Positions 16,187 to 22,386 of a DNA stretch of 56,186 nt are shown here, in pieces. Each line of letters opens with the position of its first letter. Positions within the stretch are counted from its first letter, which is position 1. Where the stretch lies: positions 1 to 56,186 of the IMG/VR virus record IMGVR_UViG_3300035670_000259. The stretch is one strand, 5' to 3'. The DNA comes from a virus (Duplodnaviria; Caudoviricetes). A model generated the notes under the pieces. It searched no databases, had not been told where the DNA came from, and saw only the letters and a program-made list of their open reading frames with translations. The position numbers were made by a program, and so were the translations under genes.

Positions 16187-16261
16187 GCCTCTATAGCACT
16201 ACGGTAGTGCAGCCAGCTCTAAACTGGAAGAAAGCCTGTTCGATTCAGGTTAGAGGCACCA
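16187..16261 (+). tRNA. Amber suppressor tRNA (anticodon CTA)
   Basis: GCCTCTA/TAGAGGC acceptor, GCAC/GTGC D stem, CCAG-CT-CTA-AA-CTGG anticodon arm, GCCTG-TTCGATT-CAGGT T arm, ACCA end. Confidence 0.9.
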
Positions 16262-18739: not shown

Positions 18740-19270
18740 ATGAAAATTAAAGAAGAAATAGGATTAGATTCTGAGGGCAGAAACAGGCTATTTAACTTTT
18801 ACTCATGTGACTGTTGTGGGGTAGAATATAAAAAACAAGCTAGGTTATCTGTTGGGTCTAAGTATGAACACTATTGTAGTGTTTCTTGTGGTAATAAAGA
18901 TAATATAAATAACACACATATAGAATTTTGTTGTGCTAATTGCGGTATAGTTTTCTTCAGAACTAAATCTAAACTAAAAAACTCCAAGCATAATATATAT
19001 TTTTGTAGTAGAGCGTGCAAGGATAAAGGGCAATCTTATATAACTGAAATACAACCTGCGCACTATAACACAGGAACAGGAAAATCTTCTTACCGGTCCA
19101 AGGCTCTAAACAACTTACCAAACGTCTGTGCAGTATGCGAATATGATAATGTAGACGCATTAGAAGTACACCACATTGATAAAGACAGACAAAATAATAG
19201 TCTATCTAACTTATTAGTATTATGTGCAAACTGTCACACACTTATACATAAAAATAAAATTAAAATATAG
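18740..19270 (+). CDS. HNH endonuclease with N-terminal zinc-ribbon repeats (free-standing homing endonuclease)
   Basis: CxxC repeats; CAVC...LEVHHIDKDRQNNSLSNLLVLCANCHTLIH; lower GC than flanks. Confidence 0.9.
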   Translation: MKIKEEIGLDSEGRNRLFNFYSCDCCGVEYKKQARLSVGSKYEHYCSVSCGNKDNINNTHIEFCCANCGIVFFRTKSKLKNSKHNIYFCSRACKDKGQSYITEIQPAHYNTGTGKSSYRSKALNNLPNVCAVCEYDNVDALEVHHIDKDRQNNSLSNLLVLCANCHTLIHKNKIKI

Positions 19271-19587: not shown

Positions 19588-20715
19588 ATGAGTCGACTAT
19601 TGTCTTACATAGAGAGTAATGATTTTTCTCGACCTACGCTGCTCCTAGATGTAGATAAAGTAGAGTCTAACTATTTACAGCTCAAGGCAGGTATGCCTAG
19701 AGCTTATATTCATTATGCAGTAAAAGCAAATCCCCATCCTGATATTCTTGCAAGACTTGTTAGCTTGGGATGCCGTTTTGACGCTGCTAGCATTGGTGAA
19801 ATTGATCTTTGTCTTGAGGCAGGAGCACATCCTGCTCATATTAGCTTTGGTAACACTGTTAAGCGAGTTCAAGATATTGAAGAAGCATACTCCAAAGGTA
19901 TTAGACTTTTTGCAGCAGATGCTTCAGAAGAACTGATCAAGGTTGCACATTATGCACCCGACAGTGATGTCTTTATACGCGTATTAATGCGTAGCACAGA
20001 AGCTGAATGGCCTCTGAGTCGTAAGTTTGGTTGTAGCAGTAGTATGGTTCTACCTCTACTGCATGAAGCACGAGAACTTGGACTTAACCCTGTCGGACTC
20101 AGCTTTCACGTTGGTTCACAAACTCGCCACCCACACATGTGGTATGATAGCTTAGATAGTGTTGCTGCTATTTGGCATAACGCTATAGAAGAAGGATTTG
20201 ACCTTACTCTACTTAATATTGGTGGTGGTTTTCCAGCTTACTATGGTGTAGATATTACAGCCCCTGAAGAATACGGTGCTTCTATTATGCAAGCTGTCGA
20301 AGAGCGTTTCGGGGAAGTAGACTATATTATGGCAGAGCCAGGTCGTGGCCTTGTAGGCAGTGCCGGGGCTATTGCTGCCGAAGCACTACTAGTAAGTCGG
20401 AAGCATGAAGAAGATCCTGTGCGCTGGGTATATCTCAACATTGGGCGATTCCACGGACTTGCAGAAACTGAATCAGAAGCTATTAAGTATCAGTTTGTTA
20501 CTCCCGATTGTGACAGCATACAAACAGGCCCCTGCATTGTAGCAGGTCCTACTTGTGATAGTGCTGATGTGTTATACGAAAATCACAAAGTCGAGTTTCC
20601 TTTAGACTTGACATGTGGCGACAGAGTTATTATATTAAACTGTGGAGCTTATACAAGCACTTATAGCACAGTAGCATTTAATGGCTTTCCGCCACTAAGA
20701 GTTGAAACAATCTAG
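19588..20715 (+). CDS. PLP-dependent fold-III ornithine/lysine decarboxylase
   Basis: YAVKANP, FDAAS, KFG, SFHVGSQ, NIGGGF, AEPGR, GPTCDSAD, GAYT...FNGF. Confidence 0.95.
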   Translation: MSRLLSYIESNDFSRPTLLLDVDKVESNYLQLKAGMPRAYIHYAVKANPHPDILARLVSLGCRFDAASIGEIDLCLEAGAHPAHISFGNTVKRVQDIEEAYSKGIRLFAADASEELIKVAHYAPDSDVFIRVLMRSTEAEWPLSRKFGCSSSMVLPLLHEARELGLNPVGLSFHVGSQTRHPHMWYDSLDSVAAIWHNAIEEGFDLTLLNIGGGFPAYYGVDITAPEEYGASIMQAVEERFGEVDYIMAEPGRGLVGSAGAIAAEALLVSRKHEEDPVRWVYLNIGRFHGLAETESEAIKYQFVTPDCDSIQTGPCIVAGPTCDSADVLYENHKVEFPLDLTCGDRVIILNCGAYTSTYSTVAFNGFPPLRVETI

Positions 20716-21054: not shown

Positions 21055-21123
21055 ATGACACACACAGTATGCTTTTCAAAGCGTTATGAGATTATATTCC
21101 ACACTCCTCGGGAGCGTTGGTAA
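21055..21123 (+). CDS. Leader peptide MTHTVCFSKRYEIIFHTPRERW (putative attenuator uORF)
   Basis: AAGGA RBS at about 21040; last codons overlap the 5' arm of an antiterminator; codons match downstream tRNAs. Confidence 0.7.
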   Translation: MTHTVCFSKRYEIIFHTPRERW

Positions 21124-21184
21124 CGTATAGCTGTGTTTGCTTGTTTACGTGTTCCAACCTCCTACAGTGTTAGGAGGTTTTTTT
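21111..21184 (+). promoter_or_regulatory. Transcription attenuator (alternative antiterminator/terminator)
   Basis: Terminator AACCTCCTA-CAGTGT-TAGGAGGTT plus T-run; competing helix GGAG(C)GTTGG..ACGTA / TACGT..CCAAC-CTCC. Confidence 0.7.
21156..21184 (+). terminator. Intrinsic terminator within the leader
   Basis: 9-bp perfect stem followed by T tract. Confidence 0.8.
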
Positions 21185-21203
21185 ATTGCTTATGAGGTGT
21201 AAA

Positions 21204-21347
21204 ATGAAACGCAAGGAACTGCCGAAGGCACGTAATCCATACGTCCTTCATCTTTCCAAACGCCCATCTGGCGCACACGGAAAGACTAAGAAAGTGGAAC
21301 GTCGTAATGACAAGATGGCGTTGCGTAAAGAATGGGCCGTTAGCTGA
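21204..21347 (+). CDS. Small basic protein (47 aa) whose stop codon lies inside tRNA-Lys
   Basis: GAGGTG RBS; MKRKELPKARNPYVLHLSKRPSGAHGKTKKVERRNDKMALRKEWAVS. Confidence 0.7.
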   Translation: MKRKELPKARNPYVLHLSKRPSGAHGKTKKVERRNDKMALRKEWAVS

Positions 21348-21409
21348 GTTGGTTTTAGCACGTGACTTTTAATCATGGGACATAGGTTCGAATCCTATAC
21401 GGCTCACCA
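21334..21409 (+). tRNA. tRNA-Lys(TTT)
   Basis: GGGCCGT/ACGGCTC; CGTGA-CTTTTAA-TCATG. Confidence 0.93.
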
Positions 21410-21503
21410 TTGTTTTGATGATACACTACTCTAATAGTTGGGATCGCCTTGTAGAAGGCCATGCTTGATGAGACGTTGCAACTAGTGTATCTTCAAAACA
21501 ATG
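21408..21503 (+). ncRNA. Long-stem cassette RNA (repeated stem family)
   Basis: CATTGTTTTGATGATACACTA...TAGTGTATCTTCAAAACAATG, about 20 bp with a single T-T mismatch. Confidence 0.55.
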
Positions 21504-21862: not shown

Positions 21863-21967
21863 ATGGCTTGTAACTGGTCTAAGATGAATGGTTATTGGTA
21901 CTGTTCTCATTGTGGAAAACAAGTAAAAGATAGTTCTAAGAAAGATTGTCCATTTAAGGCCCCATAG
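21863..21967 (+). CDS. 34-aa Cys-rich (zinc-ribbon-like) peptide, stop inside tRNA-Glu
   Basis: AAGGAG RBS; MACNWSKMNGYWYCSHCGKQVKDSSKKDCPFKAP. Confidence 0.6.
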   Translation: MACNWSKMNGYWYCSHCGKQVKDSSKKDCPFKAP

Positions 21968-22032
21968 ATTACTGGCTAGATCACCGCCCTTTCAAGGCGG
22001 AGGAACGGGATCGATACCCGTTGGGGCTACCA
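21958..22032 (+). tRNA. tRNA-Glu(TTC)
   Basis: CCGCC-CTTTCAA-GGCGG; GGCCCCA/TGGGGCT. Confidence 0.93.
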
Positions 22033-22294: not shown

Positions 22295-22386
22295 GGAAGT
22301 GGGTGTCGGTACACAGGGAGGTCTTATAAACCTTCTAGCGCCAGATCAGCGTTCTCGACTAGGTTCAACTCCTAGCACTTCTACCA
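22295..22386 (+). tRNA. tRNA-Ile(TAT)-like, short D arm and long variable arm
   Basis: GGAAGTG/CACTTCT; GAGGT-CTTATAA-ACCTT; CTAGG-TTCAACT-CCTAG; ACCA end. Confidence 0.8.

Follow-up and report, generated by a model that had tools for sequence, protein, structure and literature searches.

A family of small basic proteins from tRNA-rich phages and proteobacteria, with messages predicted to lose their stop codon: candidate ribosome-rescue factors

We describe here a small gene found in a virus record of IMG/VR (IMGVR_UViG_3300035670_000259), the whole 56,186-bp length of which, carrying 31 tRNA genes and with a CheckV completeness estimate of 18%, is referred to as the window. The gene ends within a tRNA-Lys gene, and excision of the tRNA would deprive its message of the stop codon. 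Its product belongs to what is, judging from sequence comparisons, a large and unannotated family of basic proteins of roughly 40-60 residues, spread among tRNA-rich phages and beta- and gammaproteobacteria, in which the loss of the stop codon is predicted to be a recurring design. We propose, with a probability of about one half, that the family consists of rescue factors similar to ArfA, BrfA and ArfT, made from non-stop mRNAs. The main argument is one of convergence: three different mRNA-truncating devices, namely the 5' end of a tRNA, a terminator inside the ORF and a long hairpin, are found directly after the conserved core, which would suit a rescue-like function gated by trans-translation.

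The gene, its overlap with tRNA-Lys and its relatives

The relevant features of the window are the following.

21204-21347, + strand: 47-codon open reading frame (ORF) for a small basic protein, ATG at 21204, TGA included; the conserved core spans residues 7-40
21194-21199, + strand: Shine-Dalgarno-like GAGGTG, read from the sequence, 4 nt 5' of the ATG
21334-21409, + strand: tRNA-Lys(UUU), CCA encoded (ARAGORN; Rfam RF00005)
21345-21347, + strand: TGA stop of the ORF, at tRNA positions 12-14, in the D-arm
21204-21333, + strand: part of the ORF that would be left on the 5' leader after a putative RNase P cut, placed from the tRNA 5' end

The product, MKRKELPKARNPYVLHLSKRPSGAHGKTKKVERRNDKMALRKEWAVS, contains 9 lysines and 6 arginines (15 basic residues) out of 47. 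The initial annotation had described a K/R-rich ORF of this length, with its final codons and TGA inside tRNA-Lys, and coordinates, ARAGORN and Rfam all agree with that description. The Rfam tRNA model matches 21334-21406 (65.7 bits, model positions 1-71); since the match begins at model position 1, the 5' end of the tRNA is independently confirmed. RNase P cleaves at tRNA +1, and a cut at 21333/21334 would end the mRNA at codon 43 (GAA, 21330-21332) plus one U, with no stop codon, so that a 43-residue non-stop product would result. The final 56 nt of the ORF are not predicted to fold by themselves (z 0.08), and the base at tRNA position -1, a T in 19 of 24 distinct junctions versus 19 of the 31 window tRNAs, gives no clear signal.

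A word-indexed search found 34 clusters of relatives, 66-91% identical and all 46-73 residues long, and a HMMER profile search, covering 1.84 billion representatives clustered at 50% identity, retrieved 246 clusters at E<=1e-3, of which 15 reach E<=1e-10. Comparison of the 35 core codons among 15 distinct DNA copies shows 12, 9 and 28 variable sites at codon positions 1, 2 and 3, respectively, and pairwise codon differences are synonymous in 917 cases and non-synonymous in 489. The M-K-x-K start is conserved, as is the purine-rich stretch preceding it, which in an alignment of the upstream DNA of relatives occupies the Shine-Dalgarno position, while the DNA further upstream is not. An AlphaFold2 model built with 99 relatives is confident (pLDDT, predicted local distance difference test, 88.6), featuring helices at residues 12-18 and 29-46, the latter basic, and a loop (19-28) which carries an invariant G-A-H.

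The third-position substitution bias and the 246 clusters show that the ORF at 21204-21347 is a genuine gene. That it could instead be a chance reading frame in the 5' leader of the tRNA might be argued from its shortness, from scans of Pfam, PHROGs and NCBIfam, where nothing rose above noise for either the protein or its 99 relatives, and from the names of the clusters looked up, 10 out of 10 being "hypothetical protein" or unnamed. This reading, already contradicted by the bias and by the number of clusters, is hardly tenable, and would also have to accommodate the conserved start and Shine-Dalgarno sequence, relatives whose GC contents range from 0.37 to 0.63, and the confident structural model. 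The ESM Atlas returned clusters without names, and the nearest named one, DUF7230 (0.87), a name borne by 26% of its members, was treated as a chance match; a single tblastn match in a phage collection (E=4) was rejected, and blastn of the region matched tRNAs only.

In relatives, assembled contigs that come from the RNA libraries of two studies lie across the ORF, in X15 at window positions 21201-21411 and 21213-21320, and in X17 at 21222-21335. This coverage is weak support for expression, DNA carry-over being possible and assembled contigs being unable to show RNA ends; stretches left uncovered in these runs carry no meaning. One contig (X18 record 29) starts at 21331 beside 8 loose letters, taken by eye for adapter; being a single record of low depth, it was not used.

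Message 3' ends in phage and bacterial members

Two protein-based scans yielded 18 related viral contigs, 17 of which place the stop codon at positions 12-15 of tRNA-Lys(UUU). A motif-pattern scan yielded 49 viral contigs, most of the 18 among them, distributed as follows; counts over this set are not phylogenetically independent.

Stop within tRNA-Lys(UUU): 33 of 49 viral contigs
Frame reading through the entire tRNA: 3 of 49
Stop ahead of tRNA-Lys, by 15 and 54 nt: 2 of 49
Stop 7 nt ahead of tRNA-Gln: 1 of 49
No tRNA within 260 nt: 10 of 49

The 33 stops lying within the tRNA fall at position 8 (9 contigs), 12 (16), 13 (2), 21 (1) or 22 (5). The frame thus runs without a stop up to tRNA-Lys in 36 of the 49 contigs, and only 3 of the 39 tRNA-adjacent viral copies have a stop before the tRNA, the partner being tRNA-Lys(UUU) in 38 of these 39. 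All three reading frames relative to tRNA-Lys occur among phage members, so that the tail residues for which the tRNA codes are entirely different from one lineage to another, and what is kept is the absence of a stop before it. By comparison, the stop precedes the tRNA at 9 of the 13 ORF-to-tRNA junctions of the window. The same arrangement in 33 of 49 contigs, the three additional cases of read-through and the third-position substitutions all argue that a stop inside tRNA-Lys is more than a chance occurrence.

Among the phage relatives that do not overlap a tRNA, three lineages place the stop codon within a strong hairpin.

L014: stem of 23+4 bp, stop in the 5' arm, -35.3 kcal/mol, z -9.9
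L147 (also L165 and L175): stem of 22 bp, stop in the apical loop, -30.5 kcal/mol, z -7.0
L148 (also L162): stem of 13+4 bp, stop in the loop, -19.7 kcal/mol, z -4.1

No T-run follows the L014, L147 or L148 hairpin, and in their predicted form these resemble the arfA hairpin more closely than they do terminators. The 3' ends of L156 and L161 look ordinary. In one further homologue (L146) the frame reads into an apparent 5' part, acceptor and D arm, of an L014-type tRNA-Lys, about 110-135 nt past the Arg codon from which distances are counted; no full tRNA is called there, and the sequence may be a tRNA remnant.

The same motif-pattern scan, applied to a bacterial species-genome collection, produced 113 loci, nearly all in Burkholderiales-type betaproteobacteria (Chitinimonas, Silvimonas, Jeongeupia, Thiomonas, Gallionella, Rhodocyclaceae, Curvibacter) and a few in gammaproteobacteria (Cocleimonas, Litoribrevibacter, Litoribacillus, Halioglobus). 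All are small ORFs, starting 8-20 residues ahead of an R-N-P motif. The DNA after the core was searched for terminators, defined as a GC-rich stem and, behind it, 5 or more T within 8 letters.

T-tract before the in-frame stop: 29 of 113 loci
Stop in hairpin: 1 of 113
Terminator after the stop: 6 of 113
Terminator not found: 73 of 113
ORF leaving the contig: 4 of 113

The terminator therefore precedes the stop codon in 29 of the 36 loci where an intrinsic terminator is detectable, a few of the 29 having weak 5-bp stems. A second terminator scan agrees for L098 (terminator 3305-3278, stop 3235), for L089 (terminator 868-890, stop 932) and for L065, where the stop comes directly after the T-tract. 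The T-tract mostly starts 132-147 nt past the Arg codon, and the stop may lie anywhere between 141 and 288 nt, the tails encoded past the T-tract being hydrophobic and unalike. As far as the DNA tells, it is the position of the terminator that is conserved in bacterial members, and that of the stop codon that varies.

Only 10 of the 113 bacterial loci have a tRNA downstream, about 100 being far from any tRNA.

tRNA-Lys UUU: 7 loci, +93 to +97 nt from the Arg codon
tRNA-Lys CUU: 1 locus, at the same distance of +93 to +97 nt
"SeC" UCA call: 1 locus, at the same distance of +93 to +97 nt
tRNA-Phe: 1 locus, at +178 nt

These ten loci look like phage tRNA arrays binned into bacterial genomes. The partner tRNA might suggest a factor tied to tRNA-Lys itself, for example one that counters host nucleases cutting tRNA-Lys, or one that helps the phage tRNA-Lys. 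Phage-encoded tRNA-Lys can counter defences of this type, and to the 38 of 39 viral copies are added 8 of the 9 directly adjacent tRNAs of the bacterial collection, which are also tRNA-Lys. We consider such a function improbable, however, for the great majority of bacterial members have no tRNA nearby, and physical overlap alone accounts for a frozen linkage; the near-exclusive pairing is most simply seen as a frozen accident of that overlap.

No conserved neighbourhood was found in five bacterial loci, the neighbours being RtcB, a LacI-type regulator, GGT, GNAT, START and a TonB receptor. In Chitinimonas taiwanensis (L032, 4135-5376) the family member adjoins the gene for the RtcB RNA ligase, which is not so in the four other loci checked.

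The peptide might alternatively act in cis, as a Lys-codon-rich leader controlling transcription or processing of the downstream tRNA or, in bacteria, the terminator. A small ORF before or overlapping a terminator is the classical layout of an attenuator; the ORF has 9 Lys codons with tRNA-Lys downstream, and a ribosome that gets as far as tRNA position 14 would open both the acceptor and the D stem. Yet the peptide sequence itself is shared, with synonymous codon changes, by phages and two classes of proteobacteria, its Lys codons are dispersed rather than tandem, the ORF does not stop short of the terminator but runs across it, and the neighbours in the five bacterial loci are unrelated to lysine, all of which makes a leader peptide quite improbable.

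The rescue reading weighed against compaction

According to the favoured reading, the gene and tRNA-Lys would be transcribed together, as suggested by one RNA-library contig spanning both, and RNase P, whose enzymology is established, would make the putative cut at tRNA +1, leaving the stop-less mRNA described above. Ribosomes would stall at its 3' end and, by analogy with arfA and brfA, the peptide would be tagged and degraded as long as trans-translation has spare capacity; once this is exhausted, the 43-residue peptide would be released and accumulate. Free peptide might then bind ribosomes with an empty mRNA channel and promote release of the nascent chain, probably via a release factor. 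In bacteria the same truncation would be brought about by the intrinsic terminator within the ORF, and in a few phages by the long hairpin over the stop. The logic of arfA and brfA is self-referential, the product appearing when rescue capacity runs short.

Several observations weigh against this reading. No kinship with ArfA emerged from the profile comparisons: PF03889 (ArfA) matches nothing in the window at E<=10 and none of 99 family members at E<=1, and hhalign of the family against 18 enterobacterial ArfA sequences, a set low in diversity, gives a probability of 0.2%. Two profiles searched against the PDB matched no chain at E<=10, and fold searches were uninformative, Foldseek returning 0 matches and the VIA wide fold search reaching a best Z of 3.2, with common helical arrangements. 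In the bacterial set, 73 of 113 loci have no terminator in the simple scan, which misses the hairpin of E. coli arfA and is thus uncalibrated, and many members (Thiomonas-, Gallionella- and Curvibacter-like) end at an ordinary stop 102-123 nt past the Arg codon, so that the stop-less design appears frequent, not universal. A generic best-hairpin scan over 109 loci, placing the stop inside the hairpin in 44, before it in 34 and after it in 31, lacked a control and is left out of the evidence. Phyletic data add little. Among 301 genomes from the GTDB class of one carrier, the family occurs in 25, and ArfA in 3 of 300, with no overlap with the carriers, too few for an exclusion test to have statistical power; PF03889 was found in none of 5 carrier genomes. 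ArfB is not depleted (12 of 25 carriers versus 145 of 300 overall, a tally taking in four genomes flagged unpublished, G042, G120, G265 and G275), and E. coli has both ArfA and ArfB. Co-occurrence neither helps nor hurts the rescue reading much. A complex prediction for residues 1-43 with E. coli release factor 2 (RF2) gave no answer (score 0.00) and counts neither for nor against binding.

A last point against concerns the surroundings of the gene, since other window genes, among them that of a 375-aa decarboxylase, likewise have a stop codon that runs into the 5' end of a tRNA.

21863-21967: Cys-rich 34-codon ORF, TAG at positions 8-10 of tRNA-Glu 21958-22032
19588-20715: ornithine/diaminopimelate-decarboxylase-like gene, 375 aa (Pfam); the G of its TAG is +1 of tRNA-Asp
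18740-19270: 176-codon ORF; the G of its TAG is +1 of tRNA-Ala

Of 13 ORF-to-tRNA junctions in the window, 9 have the stop before the tRNA and 2 inside it (ORFs 21204-21347, in tRNA-Lys, and 21863-21967, in tRNA-Glu), and in 2 the last base of a TAG is tRNA +1; RNase P cutting would leave also 19588-20715 and 18740-19270 without a stop. ORF 21863-21967 has weak zinc-ribbon matches, below the cut-off, and no relative in 30 related viral loci.

Since these genes share the overlap, it may be plain compaction. The product would then be an unremarkable small basic protein that binds nucleic acids or ribosomes in some other role, its full 47 residues made from unprocessed transcripts, and the overlap would preserve the linkage. 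Packing is indeed tight across the window, with 4 of the 13 junctions overlapping a tRNA 5' end; an X15 contig (record 6, 21201-21411) spans ORF and tRNA uncut, many bacterial relatives have ordinary stops, and similarity to rescue factors is lacking. Compaction leaves unexplained, on the other hand, why 29 of the 36 detectable bacterial terminators lie inside the ORF, why hairpins of 13-27 bp bury the stop in non-overlapping phage relatives, and why a stop before the tRNA is found in no more than 3 of the 39 tRNA-adjacent phage copies, although all frames have been explored. On balance we regard it as the main rival, if a rather unlikely one.

The ArfA-like logic put forward in the initial annotation is supported in part, as regards a real gene and the predicted, recurrent loss of its stop, to tRNA-Lys, hairpins or terminators (29 of 36), and not as regards sequence kinship with ArfA. 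Homologs ending well before any tRNA, which it had listed as an objection, are what most bacterial members literally are, but there a terminator replaces the tRNA, and the objection was framed too narrowly. A second gate, by an attenuator upstream of the gene, had also been suggested. The features lying next to the gene are listed below.

21156-21187, + strand: terminator-like hairpin (9-bp stem, 21156-21179) plus T-run, 17 nt 5' of the ATG; the supposed attenuator
21055-21123: 22-codon ORF, upstream of this hairpin
21410-21501, + strand: hairpin directly 3' of tRNA-Lys, arms 21410-21428 and 21484-21501

Both the 22-codon ORF and the upstream hairpin are absent from relatives, which mostly have a TTGACA-type promoter there, and double gating is thus unsupported. 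The hairpin 3' of tRNA-Lys is present in 9 out of 9 loci aligned, with a conserved closing stem of 17-19 bp and a variable interior; RNAalifold analysis of these loci proposes 17 pairs, 4 with compensatory changes. It has no Rfam match and may be a processing site, its membership in the same unit being uncertain.

Two further tRNAs of the window deserve mention. One, with anticodon CUA (16187-16261, labelled tRNA-Pyl by ARAGORN), looks like an amber suppressor, and several window ORFs end in TAG. The other, called Ile(UAU) (22295-22386), is unusually long (91-92 nt), with the anticodon at position 31, and recurs in the viral loci L010, L011, L013 and L014.

Significance and comparison with known rescue factors

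In a literature search covering mainly open-access main texts, neither this family nor a comparable rescue factor encoded by a virus turned up, nor did any account of RNase P removing stop codons for the sake of regulation. Few release-factor-dependent rescue factors, ArfA, BrfA and ArfT, are described in the accessible sources, each narrow in range; for two, the stop-less mRNA contributed to their recognition. If the proposed reading is correct, the family would provide rescue-factor candidates for many beta- and gammaproteobacteria, and stop removal would be a new, regulatory use of RNase P processing. The findings also bear on the expression of genes wedged between tRNAs in phages with dense tRNA arrays.

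A more far-reaching version, which we hold to be speculative and, on present evidence, unlikely, is that the phage factor releases the proteins of its own tRNA-punctuated, stop-stripped messages complete and untagged, and that the bacterial relatives are a fourth rescue family. In that case, with the stop stripped at 4 of 13 window junctions, the factor would spare those proteins tagging by transfer-messenger RNA and the degradation that follows, and its own stop-less message would make its level track the load of non-stop ribosomes; the fourth family would be more frequent than ArfA in the sample examined (25/301 versus 3/300).

Messages whose 3' end is set by tRNA excision are familiar from the tRNA punctuation of mitochondria, where the stop of the upstream mRNA is left incomplete. 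Mitochondria complete it by polyadenylation; in the phage no such completion is expected, and on our proposal the lack of a stop is itself what matters. A hydrolase of the ArfB type is not indicated, the GGQ motif being absent from the 47 residues and no Pfam match, to the RF-1 domain or any other, being found.

ArfT of Francisella has 40 residues and a basic Gly-Gly motif, KKGGSTNKK, near its C-terminus (10.1101/465609, as far as accessible). The KKGGAH of the gammaproteobacterial members recalls this motif, in a comparison made by eye with the quoted motif only. ArfT is reported as not regulated through a truncated mRNA, unlike what we propose for the new family.

As for arfA and brfA, they are the genes that the available text of two sources describes as built without a reachable stop (PMC8012679, PMC6881298). 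By sequence the new family is not part of ArfA; what we propose is a mode of action like that of ArfA and BrfA. ArfA (E. coli YhdL, PF03889) is likewise small and basic. Its mRNA is reported to lose the stop through a hairpin that serves as a site for RNase III or as a terminator, in place of the tRNA 5' end of the phage member, and the protein to accumulate only with trans-translation saturated; its poorly conserved C-terminal tail is described as dispensable (PMC8012679, PMC6881298). Differences are also evident: the new proteins are predicted to fold as helix-loop-helix, whereas ArfA is reported to bind by beta-strand addition and an extended tail (10.1101/465609). KGKGS, a conserved motif of the ArfA tail that enters the mRNA channel, is absent from the family, which has instead [RK]-x-[SAG]-G-A-H-x-K; this basic-Gly-x-small motif, RPSGAHGK in the phage member and KKGGAH in gamma members, loosely recalls KGKGS, as a resemblance only (10.1101/465609).

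BrfA (B. subtilis YqkK) comes from a phylum different from that of the carriers of the new family. A cryo-electron microscopy model of it has been reported (PMC6881298), and the PDB searches above are to be read with the presence of a BrfA chain in the searched copy not established. Its gene is described as having a rho-independent terminator within the coding region, before the stop, with an active product shorter than the ORF (PMC6881298), and this is the very layout of 29 loci of the new family in the bacterial collection. The range of carriers agrees as well: ArfA is reported from beta- and gammaproteobacteria (PMC8012679, PMC6881298), and the beta- and gammaproteobacterial distribution of the new family matches the range that the accessible part of one source gives for ArfA and ArfT together (PMC6881298).
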